Shown here piece after piece: positions 5,234 through 61,475 of a stretch of 64,000 bases of DNA. The notes beneath the pieces are model-generated. The model saw only the letters and a list, made by a program, of their open reading frames with translations, had not been told where the DNA came from and searched no databases. The stretch is from Chlamydiales bacterium STE3 (GTDB lineage: Bacteria; Chlamydiota; Chlamydiia; Chlamydiales; Parachlamydiaceae). Numbering within the stretch: position 1 is the first letter of the stretch; each line of letters begins with the position of its first letter. The position numbers were made by a program, and so were the translations under genes. The stretch covers positions 138,724 to 202,723 of the forward strand of contig VKHO01000025.1 of NCBI GenBank assembly GCA_011125455.1, given 5' to 3'.

Positions 5234-6226
5234 ATGACTTTTTTTTCTAATTGCCTTGAACTCGTTAAATCGATCGTTCCGCTAAATAGAAATCAGGACG
5301 AGGCTAAGGTAAAAAATAAACAAGAGAAAGTTAAGCTAAGAGATTTTCAAGATAGGTTAATTTATGAATCTATGCTTGAGATCCTTAATAGCTTAAACTC
5401 CATTAGTTTTAGGTCTTTTGAATTTTGCTATGCAATTCAAGGCTATTACAATGGACATGATGTGTGGGCTTTAAAGCTACATCGTAATCACTCCCCGACA
5501 TTTGTATCTCCCACCATAAATATTTCTGATGATTCGTGGCCAGCCTTTGCTGCCAGTTTGGACAGGCCAGAAACAAGGACACATGTTGGATCGAACTTTT
5601 ATACAACAACCATCACCCGCCATGTCTGCGATATAAAACTTGTCGGCTTGAATGCTTTTCCAGGTGAAGGAAAATGCTGGCTAGCGGGAGACACTTTTAG
5701 GACAAATTCTCACGATTTAAATCGAGATACTTGGCAATGGATTGTGAATCAATCATTTGCCAGCATGAGTTCTACAATAAAGTCACTTGCAAAGGCTACC
5801 CTTCAGGGGTTTGAGGATTACGATAAGATCTACGATAAAAGCACTAACTATCTCTCTAGGAGAAGATCGTTGACAGGCGAAGAGTTGCAACTGCAAGTGA
5901 GATTGAAAGTGATCGTTGCAGAAATTTTAATGAAAAATAAAGACTTAAAAACTCATTTTGAGCGCTTGAAGATGGTTGAAAATACCGATAATGAAACATT
6001 TAAATCTTCCCCCTTACTCGATCTAGCAACGAGAATCGCGATAGTACAAAGCATTTCCAAGGGGGAAGAAATACCTGAAGGGGGGATGGATTTTTCTTCT
6101 TATTGGGGGATCTGCGGAAAGATTAAGAATATTCCTGTTATCAGCAAGTTAATAGAAGAGAGTAAGGACTATATAGTTGGAGATAGCTATGATGAATTTA
6201 TGGCCAACAAGCAACTAAAAAAATAA
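5234..6226 (+). CDS. Hypothetical protein, paralog A of a tandem pair
   Basis: 330 aa. The C-terminus (EIPEGGMDFSSYWGICGKIKNIPVISKL) is shared with the next gene. Confidence 0.55.
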   Translation: MTFFSNCLELVKSIVPLNRNQDEAKVKNKQEKVKLRDFQDRLIYESMLEILNSLNSISFRSFEFCYAIQGYYNGHDVWALKLHRNHSPTFVSPTINISDDSWPAFAASLDRPETRTHVGSNFYTTTITRHVCDIKLVGLNAFPGEGKCWLAGDTFRTNSHDLNRDTWQWIVNQSFASMSSTIKSLAKATLQGFEDYDKIYDKSTNYLSRRRSLTGEELQLQVRLKVIVAEILMKNKDLKTHFERLKMVENTDNETFKSSPLLDLATRIAIVQSISKGEEIPEGGMDFSSYWGICGKIKNIPVISKLIEESKDYIVGDSYDEFMANKQLKK

Positions 6227-6318
6227 CCATTCTGCATTGCAAAATAGTAAATACTTGAAAGATATTAGGATCCTAAGCGACGGTGCCATTTCATGGCACC
6301 ACTTTAAAATAAGGAGTA

Positions 6319-7182
6319 TTGATGATCCCTGCTGTAAATTGGCTAAATCCTTTTTCTCGAAGGCAAAAACAGCTTGACCCTGTCCAGAAGATTCAGCTTG
6401 ATGCGACTTCTCAAGTTGTACAAAGAGTTCTTAAACAGGTTAAAGTCAATAGCGATCCCTGCTACCTTATCGAATGTCTATGTGAAGATCGCAAAATTTA
6501 TCTTATAAAAGTGCATCCAGAAAGCGATCCCTATTTTGTGGCAAAGCACATGTCTTGCTCAGCCTCTCCTTGGAAAGTTTTTATCAAAAGCATTCTCTAT
6601 AATACTGATTTGCCAATCCCTAAGATCCGAGAAGGGGCCCTTGTACACCCAGTTTCTGTGTCTCAATTTCCAAAAATGCTTTTACCCCAAAAGACATACG
6701 TTTTTGATCCTCCAGCAACACTCAAATTCACTGCCCAGAATTTTCCTGTGATGAGTAAAGAAGAATGGCAAGCAAAAGTGGAAGATTTATTCATCTTTAT
6801 GGAGGAAGAGGCACAGCAAAAAGCCAAAGCATACTTAGATGAAATCAATCACATTGAAAACTTTGTGTCCGAGGAAAAGAAGGAAATGGATCCAAACCCC
6901 TATTTTCAGTTTTCAGGTGAAAAAGAACGATTTTATCAGGGGATAACGAAGCTTGTCTTAAACGTGCTTAAACAGGATATTTTTAGAAGCCAATACAATA
7001 CTCTTGAAACTTTAGATAGAGATCATCGACTTATTGAAATTGTGACAAGGCGTGTTGTCGCGGAATCTGATGAGCCTTCTAAAGGTTGTGGTGACTTTTC
7101 AAGATACTACAAAAAGACAGGGAAAATTAAAAAATCCTTTCTCAAGCAGTTCAATGCTTATCAACAAGCAGAAAGCGGTTGA
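6319..7182 (+). CDS. Hypothetical protein, paralog B of a tandem pair
   Basis: 287 aa. The C-terminus (DEPSKGCGDFSRYYKKTGKIKKSFLKQF) is homologous to the preceding gene. Confidence 0.55.
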   Translation: MMIPAVNWLNPFSRRQKQLDPVQKIQLDATSQVVQRVLKQVKVNSDPCYLIECLCEDRKIYLIKVHPESDPYFVAKHMSCSASPWKVFIKSILYNTDLPIPKIREGALVHPVSVSQFPKMLLPQKTYVFDPPATLKFTAQNFPVMSKEEWQAKVEDLFIFMEEEAQQKAKAYLDEINHIENFVSEEKKEMDPNPYFQFSGEKERFYQGITKLVLNVLKQDIFRSQYNTLETLDRDHRLIEIVTRRVVAESDEPSKGCGDFSRYYKKTGKIKKSFLKQFNAYQQAESG

Positions 7183-7272: not shown

Positions 7273-7833
7273 TTATGGTGCCATCTTTTGGTACTGATGA
7301 AGAAAGGAAGGACCGGCATGTCGCTCGCTAATTAAGCGTATAGTTTGCAACTTTTCGATCGGGTGCTTAGGAAGCACATCCTCAATAAAAAGCATCCCAT
7401 CTGTTTTTAAGAGAGGGGTTTTATCAAAAAATTGCAAAAGAAACAGGGAAGGAGCCTTTTCTTGAGTGTAGGGAGCATCTGCAAAGACAATGTCGAAAGG
7501 TGCTCTTGGTGCTAATTGATCTAATAACCGGAAAATATCCCCTTTTAAAATATTTGTTCTCGATTCTAACTGCAATGCCTTTGCATTGGCTTGGATACAG
7601 GAGATGGCTTCACGGCTGTTATCGATAAAAGTTACCTGGTCAGCCCCTCTGCTTAACGCTTCTAACCCCATAGCGCCGGAGCCTGCATAGAGATCTAAAA
7701 AGGTTGCTTCTTCGATATAGTGCTGGACAATATTAAAAAGAGCTTCCCGAAGTCGTGAGGAGGTGGGCCGAGTGGCAGCACCTTTCGGAGCCTGGATTTT
7801 GCGGCCTCGGCATTTACCGCTGATGATTTGCAT
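7273..7833 (-). CDS. rsmD: 16S rRNA (guanine966-N2)-methyltransferase RsmD
   Basis: MQIISGKCRGRKIQAPKGAATRPTSSRLREALFNIV N-terminus, a DLYAGSGAMGLEA SAM-binding motif and an FADAPY substrate motif. Confidence 0.85.
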   Translation of the reverse strand: MQIISGKCRGRKIQAPKGAATRPTSSRLREALFNIVQHYIEEATFLDLYAGSGAMGLEALSRGADQVTFIDNSREAISCIQANAKALQLESRTNILKGDIFRLLDQLAPRAPFDIVFADAPYTQEKAPSLFLLQFFDKTPLLKTDGMLFIEDVLPKHPIEKLQTIRLISERHAGPSFLHQYQKMAP

Positions 7834-8191
7834 ACGATCGTCCTAATTTGACAGGATGGCTCCTCTGCTTAGAGGCTTCTTCAAAAACTTGCACCAAACA
7901 ATCTCCTATTGACCGTTTTCTTGGATGAATAAAATTGCATGAAAGGAACATCTAAATAAGTGAGAATCTGGCATTGAACGACATCTATATTATTATCAAA
8001 CGCCATTTTATAAAACTCCATTTTTCTCTAAAAAAACAAAAGGAGGGAAGAAAACTTGAAATGGGTCAAGAGTTATAGTCGTTTTGAAACCTTTTTAGGT
8101 CATCAATACTTGTGATCTGCCATCGATGGCGATCTACATTAGTTTTTAAAAGAAAGGACTTTTCCTTTCTAAAAAGTGAAGCTAGAAAAGC

Positions 8192-9232
8192 TTAGAATTT
8201 ATTTGTTCCATAATAGTCCATTAGCATCTCAGCTTTTTTAAAATGAGCTTTTTTTAATTCTTGGTAAACTTTTAATCCTAGGGCATTTTCTCCTTGCTTA
8301 AAATAAAGGAGCCCTAGCTTGAACAACGTATCATGATCATGAGGGCGAAGGCTGATGATGGCCTCATAGGCCTTCATTTCCTCTTCTGGCATCTGCAAAT
8401 CGCGATAGCTATAGGCGAGCTGTGTGTAAATCCAGGGATCGTTTGGCGCGAACTCCTTAAGGATTTTGAACTCTTCAATGGCGCATTCTGCAGCCGCTCG
8501 AAAACGTTGCACCATCTCTTCATTGTATTTGCTATTTGGAATCCACTCATCATTTTCATAGCCTTCCATTTGTCGAGGATCTAGGTAAAGGCCCGAAAGC
8601 ATCACATAGGCATTAGCTAGGGCAGCATGCACATGCAAATTGGTTGGCTCACAGCGCACAAGTTTAAGATGTTCTTCTAGAGATGTTTTTAGTAAAAGTT
8701 CTTTAAACGCGTGTAAATCTTCCCAATGCCAATAACAACTGAATCGTTCTAAAAAAGGAGTTAAAAAGGAGAGCCATTTGGGAGGACTGTAAAAATAAAA
8801 CTCTCTTCCGTGCATGAGGTCGGCTAATTTGCAGCAGGCTTTAGCCAAGGCGATATGGTGGTCGATTTCACCATCCTGATAATGGATGGCTTGCTTGTAA
8901 TTCTCGATAAATTGGTAGCAGAGCTCTAAGATTTTTTCTGGCCTCTGAGCATTCAAGTACTGCTTAAGCATGAGGCAAGCAAAGAGTGTCATAAAAAAAC
9001 CTGCCAGGCCAAAAGCAAATAAAGAACTTTGCAAAAGAGAAGGGAAAAAAATTACCAGGAATATCAATTCACAAAAAGCAAAAAGAGAGAGGAGAAGTGT
9101 ATAAATGAAATGTGAGACGATCAGTCGGTCGAAGGCCTTCAGGACAGGCGAACCGATATTCTTGATTTCTCCATTAACTGGGGAACGATCAAATAATTCA
9201 TCTGTCAAGCGTCCTGCTTGAGCAAAAGCCAT
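8192..9232 (-). CDS. Membrane protein with TPR-like repeats
   Basis: Two N-terminal TM helices followed by a helical repeat region (AYSYRDLQMPEEEMKAYEAIISL, GLLYFKQGENALGLKVYQEL). Confidence 0.5.
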   Translation of the reverse strand: MAFAQAGRLTDELFDRSPVNGEIKNIGSPVLKAFDRLIVSHFIYTLLLSLFAFCELIFLVIFFPSLLQSSLFAFGLAGFFMTLFACLMLKQYLNAQRPEKILELCYQFIENYKQAIHYQDGEIDHHIALAKACCKLADLMHGREFYFYSPPKWLSFLTPFLERFSCYWHWEDLHAFKELLLKTSLEEHLKLVRCEPTNLHVHAALANAYVMLSGLYLDPRQMEGYENDEWIPNSKYNEEMVQRFRAAAECAIEEFKILKEFAPNDPWIYTQLAYSYRDLQMPEEEMKAYEAIISLRPHDHDTLFKLGLLYFKQGENALGLKVYQELKKAHFKKAEMLMDYYGTNKF

Positions 9233-9362: not shown

Positions 9363-10325
9363 TTATGTTCTTACCGCTTCTAAAGTTTCCGATTTTAGCT
9401 CTTCTTGATTAAATAACGTCAGCCCTAGAAAGACAATACCGGCAGAAAGATAGAATGGCCAAGTGATCGTTTCTCCCAGATACAGCCAGCCAAAAAAAGC
9501 AGCGAAAAGAGGGGTTGTGAAACCTGCAAACGACATGAAAGTTGCAGAGTAGTGCTTAAGTAACCAACCATATAAGTTATAGCAAATAAAATTTGAAACC
9601 AGAATTAAAACAAGCGTGCAAGTCAGAAAAGGGGCAAATTCTGTGACGGGAACCGGCGTCCAGCTTTCCACAAAAAAAGAGTGAATAAGAGCTATAGATC
9701 CGCCAATAAACATGCTCATGCCGTTAGCCATAATAGGAGAAAGGTGATTCTCTGAAACTAGCTGCTTAAGTAAGATCCAGCCATAGACGCTGCATAAGGC
9801 TGCCATAATGACAGAAATTTCTGCCCAGGAAAGAAAGAGAAAATGGCCTGTTGTTTCTTCTGAGGCTGTTTGGCTGAGCAAAATGGGAATGAATCCTGCA
9901 AAGCCAGTAATTAAACCAAGCCACTTTTTGGAGGTCATTCTTTCACCAAATACGAAGTAGGAGAGAAGCGCAGAGGTAAAAGGGGAAAGACTATAGATAA
10001 AGCAAGTTTTAAAAGAAGTTAGATACTTAAGCCCCCAGAATTCAAAGGCATTTGTCAAATAAATGGCGAAAAGGGCTAAGAGGGTCAGCCGCAGCAGATC
10101 TTTTTTGCGAAGAATAAAATGCTTTCTATGGAAAAGATATTGGTAACCTAAAAGTAGAGCCCCGGCAAAAAGCATCCGACTCCCTACGAGGAAAAGTGGT
10201 TCTGTATAATCTAAGGCTGTTTTAGCTGTTGTGAAAACACTTGCAAAAAGTGCATAGACTAAAATGACTAAAAACATATTATTATCTTCTTTTGAAGAAG
10301 AAGTATAAACAAACGCTTTAATCAT
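9363..10325 (-). CDS. DMT superfamily (EamA-like) transporter
   Basis: 320 aa with about 10 TM helices and two EamA-like halves. Confidence 0.7.
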   Translation of the reverse strand: MIKAFVYTSSSKEDNNMFLVILVYALFASVFTTAKTALDYTEPLFLVGSRMLFAGALLLGYQYLFHRKHFILRKKDLLRLTLLALFAIYLTNAFEFWGLKYLTSFKTCFIYSLSPFTSALLSYFVFGERMTSKKWLGLITGFAGFIPILLSQTASEETTGHFLFLSWAEISVIMAALCSVYGWILLKQLVSENHLSPIMANGMSMFIGGSIALIHSFFVESWTPVPVTEFAPFLTCTLVLILVSNFICYNLYGWLLKHYSATFMSFAGFTTPLFAAFFGWLYLGETITWPFYLSAGIVFLGLTLFNQEELKSETLEAVRT

Positions 10326-10395
10326 ATCAAGAGGTTCTTAGTTGTTCTCTTGAGAATTTATGACCACTATGCTAGGTTAGTGGGACAATTGTGGA

Positions 10396-11097
10396 GTGAA
10401 TAAAATGCTCAAGCAGAAGCTTTTGCTGATAGAGGATGAAGAAGACATTGCCGCATTGATTAAGATGCAAGCCGAGATGTCTGGCTTTAAAATTTACATT
10501 GAGACGGATGGATTAAATGGGTTTAGAGCAATAGAAAGAGAAAAACCCGAGCTAATTATCTTAGACATTATGCTCCCTGGATTAAATGGTCTTGACGTCT
10601 GTCGCAAAGTGAAAAATAATCCCGATTTAAAACACATTCCTATCATTTTGATTTCAGCGAAGAGTGAAGAGCTCGATGTCGTGTTAGGGCTAGAGCTCGG
10701 TGCAGATGACTATGTGACAAAACCCTTTTCTCCGAAAGTTCTTTTCTCCCGCATTAAGGCTGTATTGAGAAGAAAAGCCGAGCCTGAGGTCGCAATTCAG
10801 CTGATTGAGTTTGGGGAATTCTCCATGGACGTTGATCGCTATCAACTAAAAAAGAAAGACAAGCATATTCCTCTCACTCTGTCTGAATTTGGGATTCTGC
10901 GCCGTTTAGTCAGTCATCGAGGCAAAGTGTTAACACGCAATCAGCTTCTTGATGATCTTCAAAATGATGATGCTTTCATCGTGGATCGCAATATTGATGT
11001 GCATGTTGCTGCGTTGCGCAAAAAGTTAGGACCTTCTTTCGATTGGATCGAAACCGTTAGAGGCGTAGGTTACCGTTTTAAAGACGATGAGGATTAA
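10396..11097 (+). CDS. OmpR/PhoB-family response regulator
   Basis: Receiver domain (LLIEDEEDIA...ILDIMLPGLNG...ISAKSE...GADDYVTKPF) plus a winged-helix C-terminus (VDVHVAALRKKLG...IETVRGVGYRF). Confidence 0.85.
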   Translation: MNKMLKQKLLLIEDEEDIAALIKMQAEMSGFKIYIETDGLNGFRAIEREKPELIILDIMLPGLNGLDVCRKVKNNPDLKHIPIILISAKSEELDVVLGLELGADDYVTKPFSPKVLFSRIKAVLRRKAEPEVAIQLIEFGEFSMDVDRYQLKKKDKHIPLTLSEFGILRRLVSHRGKVLTRNQLLDDLQNDDAFIVDRNIDVHVAALRKKLGPSFDWIETVRGVGYRFKDDED

Positions 11098-11262: not shown

Positions 11263-12153
11263 CTAATGTTTTCTTGCTTTTAAGCGCGCCTTGATCTCTT
11301 GGATTCTTTCTTTGTCTAAGTTCACAAAAATGTTTTTCTTTCTGCTTATCTGGACTTTCCCTGCCTCTTTGCCTAACTTTGTCACATATTTTTTCTGGGT
11401 TAAGGCAATTTCTGCTTTGCTGCTTTCTCTCCCTTTGCTAAAAAAAAGAGCAAGTTGCAGCGCATCTTGCAACGCTTCTTCATCAATTTCCTTTCCTGAA
11501 GTGCGGAGGACAACATGTGAGCCTGGATATTCGTTGATATGCATCCAGTGATCATTCCCCTTGGCATAGCGAAATGTCAGTAAATCATTCCCTTTTGCAT
11601 TTTTTCCTACCCAAATCGATAAACCCGATGCGCTGAAGAACTCGTAAAAGGGGAGAGGAGGTTCTTCGCGTTGATTCTTTTTTTTTGCCTGTTGGGGATT
11701 AAGGTTTGTTTTGGCTTTAAACGCAAGGAGTTCTTCCTCTGTGACAATGGCTTCCAGTTCAATAAGTAAAGCTTCTTGCTTATTGAGTTCTTGCTGAGCT
11801 AATAAAAGCTGCCTTTGAAGAGGCTCTTGGCTTGCTTTAAGTTTTTTACTTTTTTTGAATCGCGCTGCGATCTCTTCATGAGGTTTTAGCCGAGGATCTA
11901 AAGCCATGCATATTATGCGCCCCTCTTGCTCCCAATCGGGTAGGGAAATCTCGCTAAGGCCTTTATTTAGCAAATATTGATACGAACTGAGAAGTTCTGC
12001 TTGATGATACTCTTTTTGCCAAGCAAGAGCGTGATTTAATGCTTCTTGGCATTTCAAAAGATACTTTTTGGTGGCTTTAAGATGCCTTTTAACAAGCTTT
12101 TTAAATTTTTTCTTTTCAGCACTTAAGAATGACTCAGCGGGGACATCCATCAA
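11263..12153 (-). CDS. DUF814 (NFACT-R) domain protein
   Basis: SASGLSIWVGKNAKGNDLLTFRYAKGNDHWMHINEYPGSHVVLR matches the DUF814 signature. The N-terminus is a Lys-rich coiled coil. Confidence 0.7.
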   Translation of the reverse strand: MMDVPAESFLSAEKKKFKKLVKRHLKATKKYLLKCQEALNHALAWQKEYHQAELLSSYQYLLNKGLSEISLPDWEQEGRIICMALDPRLKPHEEIAARFKKSKKLKASQEPLQRQLLLAQQELNKQEALLIELEAIVTEEELLAFKAKTNLNPQQAKKKNQREEPPLPFYEFFSASGLSIWVGKNAKGNDLLTFRYAKGNDHWMHINEYPGSHVVLRTSGKEIDEEALQDALQLALFFSKGRESSKAEIALTQKKYVTKLGKEAGKVQISRKKNIFVNLDKERIQEIKARLKARKH

Positions 12154-15377: not shown

Positions 15378-16147
15378 CTTTGATAGACTCGAAATTCAGC
15401 TCTTCTGTTTTGTGCCCATGCTTCATCATGGTGTTCGAAAATCACAGGACGTTCTTTACCATAGGAAATTGTAAATACACGATCTGGATTTGCTCCTTCG
15501 TTTATAAGCAAATTGCGTACAGAATTTGCCCTTTTAGCCCCTAATGTCAAGTTGTAAGCATCTGGACCTCTTTCGTCACAATGGCCTGCAACAAAAAGAT
15601 AGGTTTGAGGGTGTCTTTTGAGATATTGAGCTATTTTGCGGATTGTGGATAAATCTTCATCATCTTGGACAAGATTGCTATTGTAGGCAAAATGGATTGT
15701 GCGAAAGACGGCTGCAAGTTGAGGGTCCATTGCTGGATCTTTAAAAGCCTCAATTCCTGGGAGAGCGCTATTAGGATCACCCGGAATATCCCTTGGCTGG
15801 GGAGCCCGGTAGTCACCCATCGAGGGGTTTTCATTATAAACATCTGTAATAGGAATGTAGTCACTTTCGCTCATGTAGTTATCCTGAGGCATAAATTCTT
15901 CTCTGGCGCAGACTGCGCGAGAATCCCCGTGTTTCCCCCCTAATGAACGCATGCCGCGGTACATGTGGCGTTGTGCCGTTTGTGTGTCTTCCCAAACCTC
16001 GTTTCCTGAACGGTTACAACTTGATAAGGCTCCCGCTAAGGCGACAACGATTAATAGAAAAATTCTGTTGCTCATATTCCCTACCCTCTCCTTGAATTCA
16101 ACAAGCATGCTAACAAAATTTACATGGCAAGTCCACAGAAAATCCAA
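15374..16147 (-). CDS. pal: Peptidoglycan-associated lipoprotein Pal (OmpA family)
   Basis: Lipobox LSSC. The OmpA C-terminal domain reads IHFAYNSNLV...GHCDERGPDAYNLTLGAKRANSV...RRAEF. Confidence 0.85.
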   Translation of the reverse strand: MDFLWTCHVNFVSMLVEFKERVGNMSNRIFLLIVVALAGALSSCNRSGNEVWEDTQTAQRHMYRGMRSLGGKHGDSRAVCAREEFMPQDNYMSESDYIPITDVYNENPSMGDYRAPQPRDIPGDPNSALPGIEAFKDPAMDPQLAAVFRTIHFAYNSNLVQDDEDLSTIRKIAQYLKRHPQTYLFVAGHCDERGPDAYNLTLGAKRANSVRNLLINEGANPDRVFTISYGKERPVIFEHHDEAWAQNRRAEFRVYQR

Positions 16148-16231
16148 CGAAAAAGAAGGTTCTTTGTAAAGGAGCTAACGTGAGAAATGGGTTTGATGGG
16201 TGGATTAGGCTTACACTGCTTTAACCTAAAA

Positions 16232-58839: not shown

Positions 58840-59605
58840 GGCTAAGATGTTTAAAACAAATTTCCCCCTCACTTATATGCATGTGGACCGCTTTAGAAGA
58901 GGCGCTCCTCATGAGGTTTTTTCCCAGAAGGGCTCTTTGAAGGGAAGAAGAGTATGTCGCCTTCTTTTTATAAAAAAAGCTCTTTTAAGTCCCCTTTCGC
59001 TTCCAGCTTTGACTCTCTACAGCGCACTTTTAACGGTCATCAAGTTGGCAGAATTGTCTGGAAAAACGTTTGCCTTAGTCCTTCCAAAAGAACAGAATGT
59101 ACAAAAGTTCATCCTTACAAGCAAAGGATTTACAGATCAACTTATGCTGACGGGATTAATGCCCATTAAAATTGTTGCTGAAATTACTCGCCTTGGCCTT
59201 TCCATGATTTTCGGCTCAAATATCTATTTCTCTCCCCTTGAAAAGCATCCTCCATCTATCCAAGTAGATTACTATAGCGATGCGGTAAAAAGCCAGCTTC
59301 AAAAGTTTTGGTCAAAAGGAAAAAACCGCAAAATTAATGCCGAAATCGTAGAAATCGAGCAGATTCACAGGCAAATTCTAGAGGAGCTTTTTGATGAAGA
59401 GGATAGGATTCGATTTTTAAAGCAGTTTAGAGTTGTTTTGAGAGATGTACGGAAGGCTTGTACGTTTCGCCTTGATTTGGATAAATTAAGGCAATTCTTT
59501 GTAGAATTTTGCCAAAAAGAAGGAATCCAAATGGAGTTGACAACTTTTCTGGCAAAGAAAGATGATGCTGATGATGACCCACAACCTAGTACTGAGCTAG
59601 ATTAA
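58832..59605 (+). CDS. Hypothetical membrane protein
   Basis: 257 aa, two hydrophobic segments, acidic C-terminus. Confidence 0.4.
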   Translation: MIKAKMFKTNFPLTYMHVDRFRRGAPHEVFSQKGSLKGRRVCRLLFIKKALLSPLSLPALTLYSALLTVIKLAELSGKTFALVLPKEQNVQKFILTSKGFTDQLMLTGLMPIKIVAEITRLGLSMIFGSNIYFSPLEKHPPSIQVDYYSDAVKSQLQKFWSKGKNRKINAEIVEIEQIHRQILEELFDEEDRIRFLKQFRVVLRDVRKACTFRLDLDKLRQFFVEFCQKEGIQMELTTFLAKKDDADDDPQPSTELD

Positions 59606-60004
59606 GACCTGTTTTGAATGGGAAAGGTAATCGTAAAAATCGGGTTCGCTTGTGATAAAAATATGATGGTGGTTAAGGCAAACCGGGATAATTGCATCGA
59701 TAATCTCCATGTTGCCGACACCAGGTGTGCAAATGGCCGAAATCTTGTCGATAAAAGGACTTTTTTCCAAAAGAATCAACCCTTGCATGTAGTCGGAAAG
59801 GCTAAAGCCTTCATCTTGAACTCTAAAAAAAATTAATGTGTGGCAATAATGAAGTGCTTGGATAGCAAAATAAAGGCCTTGACTATCGATAGGAGGATTT
59901 CCAAAGAAATCTTGTAATTCCTCTAAAGTTTTAATTTGGTACCCTTTGGTAAATTCACCGCGTTCTGCTTCCCCAAAAAGAGCGATAGAAGGGGAGTCGT
60001 TCAT
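59597..60004 (-). CDS. Hypothetical protein
   Basis: 135 aa ORF with an RBS-like upstream sequence. No motif recognised. Confidence 0.4.
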   Translation of the reverse strand: MNDSPSIALFGEAERGEFTKGYQIKTLEELQDFFGNPPIDSQGLYFAIQALHYCHTLIFFRVQDEGFSLSDYMQGLILLEKSPFIDKISAICTPGVGNMEIIDAIIPVCLNHHHIFITSEPDFYDYLSHSKQVLI

Positions 60005-60122: not shown

Positions 60123-60195
60123 GCCTAAATAGCTCAGTAGGTAGAGCAGCGCATTCGTAACGCGAAGGTCGTCGGTTCGATTCCGGCTTTGGGCA
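60123..60195 (+). tRNA. tRNA-Thr (anticodon CGU)
   Basis: GCCTAAATAGCTCAGTAGGTAGAGCAGCGCATTCGTAACGCGAAGGTCGTCGGTTCGATTCCGGCTTTGGGCA is near-identical in the D and T arms to canonical tRNA-Thr(CGU). The acceptor stem pairs. No CCA encoded. Confidence 0.85.
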
Positions 60196-60605
60196 ATCCC
60201 TTTCCAGTACCTGTGAGCATGATTCAGCTTGGATTCATCAACACTATCCAAGTTAAAGACGAAAAAAACTATTGGAACTTCCTACAAAGTGTGAATATTT
60301 ACGGAACCCTACCCCTGTTAATCGCTATTTTGCAACTCTCAGAAGAGCTTTTCGTTATGCCTTCAATGACCTTCGCTGAATTGAGGAGAATCCTTGTGGA
60401 AATTTCATAAAACTAAAAGCCAAACCTAAAACGTATCGAGCAGAAGAAGCTAACGAAATTAATATCTATCAATCTCCTGATTCCTCCAATTAAATCCCAC
60501 AGCACTCAATAGTTTTTTATCCTTTTGAACTGCTCAATAAGGGCTCGAACTGCTATTTGACTTATTTAAGTTTTTACGGCAAAATGATGATAGATAAGGA
60601 GGTGA

Positions 60606-60857
60606 ATGATGACCCAAAAGCAAAAACATGAAACGGTTCGTTTAACTGTTGATTTTCCTGTTGAGCAGCACACTTACATTAAAATGATGGCTGCTAAAGA
60701 AGGGATTAGCATGAGACAATTCATCATTGAGCATTTACCTGGGCCCCAATTAGAGAAAACTAAGAAAGGAACAGTCAAAAAAACAAAATTCGATGCATTG
60801 CTGGATGAGATTATGATTGAATACGCTGATGAGTTGAAGAGCTTATCAAAACGATGA
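60606..60857 (+). CDS. Ribbon-helix-helix antitoxin (Phd-like partner of Doc)
   Basis: TVRLTVDFPVEQHTYIKMMAAKEGISMRQFIIEHL RHH pattern. Stop/start overlap with doc (ATGATGG). Confidence 0.7.
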   Translation: MMTQKQKHETVRLTVDFPVEQHTYIKMMAAKEGISMRQFIIEHLPGPQLEKTKKGTVKKTKFDALLDEIMIEYADELKSLSKR

Positions 60858-61231
60858 TGGAATTCTTATCAGTTGAAGAAGTTATCGCTATGCACGAAGC
60901 ATTTTTGCAAGGATTTGGTGGTTTGCCAGGTATTCGAAACATTCATCTTCTGCTGTCTGCAGTAGAAATTCTTAAAAGTAAGATGTTTGGCCAAGATTTG
61001 TATCCGACTATTTATGACAAAGCTGCGGCTTATCCCTGACATATTGTTTGCAATCATCCATTCAATGATGGAAACAAGCGTGCAGGTTTTGGCTCTGCTC
61101 TGCTTTTCTTAAAAGCCAACTCTTTTCCCATAAGATTTAATAAGAAAAAATACGAAAACCTAGTTGTAGAAGTGGCAAAAGGCAAAGTCACTAAAGAAGA
61201 AATTGCCAGGTTCTTAGAACATGGTGAGTAA
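60854..61231 (+). pseudogene. doc: doc (death-on-curing, Fic/Doc family) toxin gene with an in-frame TGA
   Basis: MEFLSVEEVIAMHEAFLQGFGGLPG...AAAYP-TGA-HIVCNHPFNDGNKRAGFGSALLFLKAN. The Doc motif HxFx(D/N)GNKR is present. The TGA at 61037..61039 is in frame. Confidence 0.7.
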
Positions 61232-61432
61232 GCTTTTTAGGAAAAGTTGAAAAAATTTTTGATGGGGTGGTGAAGTAGGATGCTTGTCTCCCCAGGGGAC
61301 CACACCCCTCTTCCCCTATACAGCATATAATTTTCAAAAAGGAATCTCACGGTGCAAAAGCGGCCAGCGCGTGGCATATTGCACCATCAAAAACTGTCAG
61401 AATTCAGTTGCATTTTAGTTGTAACTGCCTTA

Positions 61433-61475
61433 ATTCGTGACGCGAAGGTCGTCGGTTCGATTCTAGCGTTGGGCA
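61433..61475 (+). repeat. Partial duplicate of the tRNA-Thr 3' half (att-site-like direct repeat)
   Basis: attcgtgacgcgaaggtcgtcggttcgattctagcgttgggca versus tRNA attcgtaacgcgaaggtcgtcggttcgattccggctttgggca. Confidence 0.75.

Follow-up and report, generated by a model that had tools for sequence, protein, structure and literature searches.

A 1.3-kb islet in the genome of Chlamydiales bacterium STE3 provides a small, clean record of how an integrative element dies in a genome of the obligate intracellular type. The islet lies in a stretch of 64,000 nucleotides (nt) of contig VKHO01000025.1 (positions 138,724 to 202,723), here called the window, to which all coordinates below refer. In the favoured explanation, to which we give a probability of about 85%, an element integrated into a threonine transfer RNA gene (tRNA-Thr) was stabilized there by a parD-doc toxin-antitoxin (TA) module, was immobilized by deletions and lost its toxin gene, doc, to point mutation, with the antitoxin gene, parD, remaining as the last intact gene. 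Four of the six features that mark tRNA-integrated elements were found, namely the intact tRNA, the repeat of its end, an integrase and an intact family of elements with the same attachment site (att); a distinct base composition was not. The islet is a real, decayed integrative islet whose addiction module has decayed toxin first, and as such it is an ordinary example of known decay. It reveals no new mechanism; that tRNA genes act as island sites, that integrases become pseudogenes and that TA modules lose their toxin first is already established.

Footprint of probable integration at the tRNA-Thr gene

The tRNA-Thr gene, with anticodon CGT, is intact at 60123-60195 on the plus strand, as are all islet features described here, and is recognized both by ARAGORN and, over its full length, by Rfam family RF00005 (62.1 bits). 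Its 3' half, from the anticodon loop to the discriminator base (60153-60195; family D3 of the repeat search), recurs at 61433-61475, and together they form a two-copy direct repeat of 43 nt with 39 of 43 positions identical (91%). The original prediction, which was made from the DNA letters without database searches, had seen this recurrence and given about five mismatches; the count is four. The repeat is real and non-random, because its 22-nt core, GCGAAGGTCGTCGGTTCGATTC, occurs exactly twice within the window and in none of 100 dinucleotide-preserving shuffles, with up to three mismatches permitted. The 3' 43-45 nt of the tRNA gene would accordingly be named the core of the left attachment site (attL), and the downstream copy can be read as the right one (attR), a displaced, non-functional tRNA-Thr 3' half. 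This copy is not called as a tRNA by ARAGORN or Rfam and has no tRNA 5' half in the 30 nt upstream, and two of its four differences lie in the T stem, which they weaken. The tRNA-Thr is the sole Rfam RNA family in the islet, with none in the spacer that precedes attR (61233-61432). At tRNA position 39 (window positions 60161 and 61441) both att copies have C, which leaves A31·C39 mismatched within the anticodon stem; four compared loci (L083, L085, L087 and L088) have T. Here and below, L-numbers denote compared loci and P-numbers homologous proteins.

The original prediction held that no integrase survives between the two copies. A 216-nt tyrosine-integrase pseudogene fragment (about 72 codons) nevertheless occupies 60260-60475, and its presence strengthens the integration reading. 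The fragment was identified by tblastn against the fetched loci and against the integrase family, and it aligns to residues ~111-186 of tyrosine integrases of ~357-361 aa. The matches include P0145 (60% identity, E 2.6e-22), P0122 (51%, E 1.5e-19) and the integrase of L083 (49%, E 2e-17); across the family, identity is 47-60% over the longest alignments and up to 65% over 60 residues, with E values down to 1e-24. PHROGs recognized the same interval (PHROG_1, E 3.6e-5), whereas Pfam and NCBIfam did not, and a word-indexed homologue search with the 78-aa fragment returned no match. No other interval of the window has an integrase-family tblastn match. The frame read from 60197 encodes …RKKLLELPTKCEYLRNPTPVNRYFATLRRAFRYAFNDLR*IEENPCGNFIKLKAKPKTYR…, in which an in-frame TGA (60377-60379) stands where the conserved 'NLRWIDENPC' has its Trp, and the first ~110 codons as well as the entire catalytic domain are absent. 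Source names in this family of ~360-aa integrases include Estrella lausannensis, Rhabdochlamydia and Waddliaceae, and by its protein matches the family is widespread in Chlamydiota.

Between the tRNA and this fragment lies the element-side arm of attL (60196-60259), which resembles the arms of two compared loci: 60151-60237 matches L083 2220-2304 at 78% identity, and 60209-60231 matches L087 9862-9884 at 95.7%. The distance from the tRNA end to integrase codon 111 is ~480 nt in L088 and 64 nt here, and ~400 nt, comprising the promoter, start codon and initial ~110 codons of the integrase gene, appear to have been lost. A 73-aa open reading frame (ORF) at 60189-60410, which the original prediction had listed among the contents of the islet, is spurious: it begins inside the tRNA, and it is not a gene because it has no homologues and overlaps the integrase-homologous frame, across which it runs out of frame. 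It gave no tblastn match in the related fetched loci, no PHROG match and no significant Pfam match (a weak HeH hit, E 0.068, falls below the cutoff). Its start (…TIQVKDEKNYW…) was considered as a candidate for the arm-binding N-terminal part of the integrase, an idea that was dropped when BLAST gave it no support.

Intact relatives of the element are present in other Chlamydiota. In L088, a 3.9-Mb contig, the gene for a complete 361-aa integrase (10001-11086) begins 150 nt past tRNA-Thr(CGT) at 9778-9850, and DUF1016, DnaG zinc ribbon and DUF3987 genes lie further downstream. In L087, the integrase is preceded at ~150 nt by a 45-nt att that shares 95.6% identity with the tRNA 3' half of the window. 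L083 and L086 belong to one JGI contig, which is chlamydial and of metagenomic origin. The order in L083 is att (2220-2265), integrase, DUF1016, DUF3987, further genes, parD (7756-8004), doc (8001-8378) and att (8526-8571); the first att is a 45-nt tRNA-Thr 3' half, the integrase between the atts is 5'-truncated, and the second tRNA-Thr 3' half follows doc by 148 nt. L086 has three tRNA-Thr 3'-half copies (25-58, 9837-9870 and 16147-16188) and two integrases, so that islands have evidently accreted in tandem at tRNA-Thr; its upstream part holds the third half-copy and a full integrase, while the other integrase is 5'-truncated (301 aa versus ~360).

The att copies in L083, L086 and L087 share with the window a start at tRNA position 29-32, and in L083/L086 the parD-doc module lies at the attR-proximal end, again as in the window. 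The right arm of the islet, the spacer between doc and attR (61233-61432), has a weak tblastx match at 61344-61430 (59% over 29 codons, E 1.7e-5) to the corresponding spacer of L083/L084/L086. Since intact cousins share both att and arms, the window element can be regarded as a deletion derivative of this island type, in line with the original prediction of an element integrated into tRNA-Thr of which only a small remnant, here 1.3 kb as against the intact cousin islands, persists between the repeat copies. These comparisons also suggest that tRNA-Thr(CGT) is a hot spot where integration in Chlamydiota has recurred. Additionally, the intact islands of L088 (10001-15910) and L087 (10001-14890) carry DnaG zinc ribbon and DUF3987 (primase/helicase-like) genes, and those of L088 and L083/L086 carry DUF1016/YhcG; such a gene content is reminiscent of integrated replicons akin to plasmids or satellites.

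A broken toxin gene beside an intact antitoxin gene

The toxin gene of the islet, at 60854-61232, encodes a Fic-fold death-on-curing toxin. It matches PF02661 (Fic/DOC; E 4e-14, 53.6 bits against a cutoff of 24) and TIGR01550 (DOC_P1; 49 bits against 38.65) and aligns over its full length with P1 Doc (3K33; E 5e-13). An in-frame TGA at 61037-61039 forms codon 62, and the catalytic His of the Fic motif follows six codons later. In the P1 Doc alignment it falls on V60, directly before A61-T-A-R-G-H66-I-F-N-D-A-N-K-R, exactly where the original prediction had placed it. The catalytic motif HPFNDGNKR is encoded at codons 68-76, 3' of the stop, which would therefore yield a 61-residue product without the catalytic loop (HxFxDGNKR). 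By comparison, the 120 listed homologues are all 113-139 aa long, with at least 89% of the stop-spanning query matched. Where the window reads AAAYP*HIV, AAAYL[Y/F]HIV stands in every one of the 21 aligned homologues, which are 56-83% identical and mostly 125 aa long. The codons are TAT CCC TGA CAT in the window, TAT CTC TTC CAT in L081 and TAC CTT TAC CAT in L083, and the lesion thus comprises three substitutions within five bases, L61P and the stop at codon 62; judged from these codons, such a patch is not a typical sequencing error.

The rest of the toxin sequence has also changed. In a leave-one-out comparison, the window doc deviates at seven columns that are at least 90% conserved (Y4F, D15E, D29N, N31H, P40L, L61P and T77A), five of which are invariant in the other 21 homologues; among 14 aligned relatives at least 74% identical, 13 show 0-4 such deviations and one (P0017) shows five. 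A three-taxon comparison assigns 11 private amino-acid changes to the window lineage, against 5 and 6 in the others. In this genome TGA serves as a regular stop: it terminates 9 of the 42 window ORFs of at least 200 codons and ends parD at the same residue as in its homologues. An alternative code with TGA as Trp, which the TGA at a Trp position of the integrase remnant had prompted, was rejected on these grounds. On the aligned sequences, then, the window doc is a Doc-family pseudogene, and no working member. No other doc copy was found within the 64-kb window.

The antitoxin gene directly upstream is intact, as the original prediction of an inactivated toxin and a retained antitoxin implies. 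At 60606-60857 it encodes an 83-aa ribbon-helix-helix (RHH) protein of the ParD type, and its TGA stop overlaps the doc start (ATGA). The only significant Pfam family is the ParD family PF09386, just above the cutoff (E 3.6e-6, 27.7 bits against 27.3), with weaker matches to the RHH families HicB, ParG and RHH_10; the RHH region also aligns with RK2 ParD (2AN7; E 0.012). No Phd/YefM match was found for the antitoxin. Of the phd-doc module that had been proposed, the Doc half and the RHH fold thus stand, and the Phd assignment gives way to ParD. ParD-type homologues are paired with Doc in L081, L083, L090 and L092. The window ParD is 90% identical to that of L081 and 83% identical to that of L083, with the same C-terminus; the window ParD and the L081 copy do not differ over residues 7-52 (HETVRL...KKG, including the RHH core), and the window lineage has three private changes, as many as L081. 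By these comparisons parD shows no decay, and both the gene and its promoter region look intact.

The promoter region at 60557-60601 contains a sigma-70-like TTGACT-17-CAAAAT (60557-60585), and identity to L083 is 95.6% over these 45 nt (L083 7706-7750), against 82% in the coding part. The region may also act as an operator. The homology of other cassettes begins within ~65 nt, at 60492 (L081/L082) and 60556-60557 (L083/L084, L092/L093), and the region is probably both promoter/operator and the left edge of a mobile parD-doc cassette. For annotation, the locus thereby gains an integrase pseudogene and a doc pseudogene, loses a spurious 73-aa ORF and has its antitoxin reassigned from the Phd to the ParD type.

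Proposed decay course and competing explanations

The available data favour a model in which the attP of the element recombined, via an integrase of ~360 aa, with ~45 nt at the 3' end of the tRNA-Thr(CGT) gene of the host, a target spanning the anticodon stem/loop to the discriminator base. Integration would have rebuilt a working tRNA at attL (60123-60195) and displaced the other 3' half to attR (61433-61475). The parD-doc addiction module at the attR-proximal end probably penalized loss of the element. Two deletions would then have followed, one of ~400 nt that removed the integrase start and arm-binding domain, and another that took out everything between integrase codon ~186 and a point ~50 nt ahead of parD, an interval that occupies ~5 kb in L083 and would give an approximate size for the lost cargo. 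In turn, the integrase remnant would have acquired its TGG to TGA nonsense codon and doc its CTC TTC to CCC TGA patch. We infer from these states an order of loss in which mobility went first, by deletion, and the toxin second, by point mutation, with the antitoxin last to remain intact. As far as its sequence allows a judgement, the locus is now immobile and non-toxic, and ParD most likely persists simply from too little time for decay.

Several results weigh against this course of events. No empty-site allele was found in the related flotillin loci or in a metagenome scan, and the nearest genomes compared were distant (at most 85% amino-acid identity for flotillin and at most 58% for NfeD). 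Exact-match searches with four proteins of the window (the NfeD-like protein, flotillin, ParD and the 135-aa protein left of the tRNA-Thr) returned no match. None of 23 related Chlamydiota loci has a tRNA-Thr near the nfeD-flotillin pair, and the genes that flank the islet on the left in the window are absent from all 23, which have only that pair in common with it. The metagenome scan, made with the tRNA 5' half, returned one contig (L085), which has a different left flank and a different genomic context; its tRNA has no adjacent integrase in the 190 nt before the contig end. Furthermore, the GC content shows no step, at 0.35-0.44 inside the islet and 0.33-0.46 outside, and an atypical composition is not obligatory, especially for an element circulating within the same phylum. 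The pairwise dN/dS of doc is still low, at 0.135, and its inactivation therefore seems recent relative to the divergence between the copies; the non-synonymous excess among its private changes (15:15 versus 6:12) is not statistically compelling alone.

A further point against the model comes from the module itself. The closest parD-doc copy, that of L081 (85% DNA identity), and those of L090 and L092 stand in contexts without att or integrase, and no att or integrase remnants were found around the parD-doc copies of L081 and L090-L093. The cassette accordingly also moves or persists independently of the island. By these contexts, parD-doc is a promiscuous cassette that is cargo of this island type at least in the window and in L083/L084. 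L081, a chlamydial contig, carries two parD-doc pairs 5 kb apart (6170-6786 and 11284-11912), and L092 (9759-11499) has a zeta-toxin-like gene after parD-doc and, nearby, a group II intron reverse transcriptase; these genomes thus show clustering of TA cassettes.

The competing explanation that survives best, although it is on balance doubtful, concerns the fate of parD. The orphan ParD might be under selection, either as a transcriptional regulator or as an anti-addiction or immunity factor against the Doc of parD-doc elements, whether incoming or resident, and the islet would then be domesticated. The intact gene with its conserved residues 7-52, the absence of an excess of private changes and the conserved 45 nt upstream all fit this possibility. 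So do the numbers of parD-doc cassettes in Chlamydiota, where they are multi-copy (two in L081) and 235 homologues were found, and the precedent of the anti-addiction concept and of toxin-first decay of a chromosomal ccd system (PMC2654758). Against it, doc is itself largely intact 3' of its stop, and conservation of parD is therefore what recent inactivation would leave without any selection. The three private changes in ParD, moreover, lie in its C-terminal region, presumably the toxin-binding part, and a resident target within the window is lacking, with no second doc copy there. The present data do not separate selection on ParD from recent neutral persistence.

A broader and more speculative proposal, which we consider improbable, extends this thought to the entire family. 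The integrases and their DUF3987/primase-type cargo might represent undescribed, plasmid- or satellite-like Chlamydiota elements that are specific for tRNA-Thr(CGT) and accrete in tandem, with the orphan ParD as retained immunity against incoming Doc. If true, the islet would be a domesticated anti-addiction locus.

It is very unlikely that the module still functions because the TGA of doc is an artefact of sequencing or assembly or is bypassed by efficient read-through. The remaining doc frame is open and conserved, HPFNDGNKR included, which would suit either version. TGA followed by C is a leaky termination context in Escherichia coli; the doc stop does precede a C, and tRNA-Trp would insert an aromatic residue where the homologues have Tyr or Phe. 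An error, however, would have to account for three clustered substitutions and no homopolymer indel, and neither error nor read-through explains the change of the adjacent near-invariant Leu to Pro or the changes at five other columns invariant in the 21 aligned homologues. The second in-frame TGA, in the neighbouring integrase remnant, fits general decay, and the regular use of TGA to end long ORFs speaks against read-through.

Least credible of all is that the half-tRNA arose by local duplication or from a decayed second tRNA gene and that parD-doc was inserted independently: the occurrence of the cassette elsewhere without att or integrase and the missing empty site would agree with this, but the copy begins at the anticodon loop exactly like the atts of L083, L086 and L087 and has no 5' half upstream, an integrase fragment of the tRNA-Thr-associated family adjoins the intact tRNA, and both arms of the element resemble the L083 island.

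Known systems and neighbouring genes

The favoured reading, that of an integrated and decayed element, places the islet beside chlamydial islands already described. Protochlamydia naegleriophila is reported to carry PnaK_GI2, a 15-kb island directly downstream of tRNA-Thr, and Protochlamydia islands to contain frameshifted or pseudogenized mobility genes, with doc genes on a chlamydial megaplasmid (PMC5010888); Pam100G of P. amoebophila is another chlamydial tRNA-integrated island (PMC548262). Like islands of this class, the locus has an intact tRNA at one end and a repeat of the tRNA 3' end at the other, a tyrosine integrase gene adjoining the tRNA, variable cargo and pseudogenized mobility genes. 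Unlike them, it measures only 1.3 kb, retains ~72 codons of its integrase with a nonsense codon among them, and has neither a compositional signature nor an excision-competent form.

Decay of the TA module has its own precedents. In E. coli, ccdO157 exemplifies toxin-first decay of a chromosomal TA system, and the anti-addiction model has been reviewed alongside it (PMC2654758); there as here the toxin gene is mutated while the antitoxin gene and its promoter are intact, although the TA family and the host differ. HipAB in CGI48 of Shewanella is a TA-stabilized genomic island (PMC8978831). It shares with the window the position of a TA module inside a tRNA-integrated island, which in the window and in L083 is at the attR end; in the window, by contrast, a stabilizing role is presumed from this arrangement, and the island has already lost both mobility and toxin.

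The toxin itself is best compared with that of phage P1. Phd-Doc of P1 is a type II TA system whose toxin, Doc, has a Fic fold and acts as a kinase on EF-Tu (structures 3K33 and 3DD7). The window toxin belongs to the same DOC_P1 subfamily (TIGR01550), has the H-x-F-x-D-A/G-N-K-R motif in a full-length alignment, and is likewise preceded by an antitoxin gene that overlaps its start. It differs in that its partner is a ParD-type RHH protein rather than Phd/YefM, in that the toxin is cut at codon 62 before the catalytic His, and in that the module lies in a chromosomal island remnant rather than on a plasmid prophage.

Two further genes of the window adjoin these subjects. Directly left of the tRNA-Thr, on the minus strand, a 135-aa ORF (59597-60004) shows weak similarity to the N-terminal part of a phage tail sheath protein (PHROG_23, E 0.046; Pfam Gp18_domIII_N, E 0.1). 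None of the fetched loci has a homologue, and the ORF may be either an orphan or what is left of a contractile-tail gene. Additionally, a larger Fic gene at 51998-53098 on the plus strand encodes 366 aa (PF02661, E 4e-19) and is unrelated to the small Doc; it lies ~550 nt from tRNA-Ser(GGA) at 53653-53743 on the minus strand.

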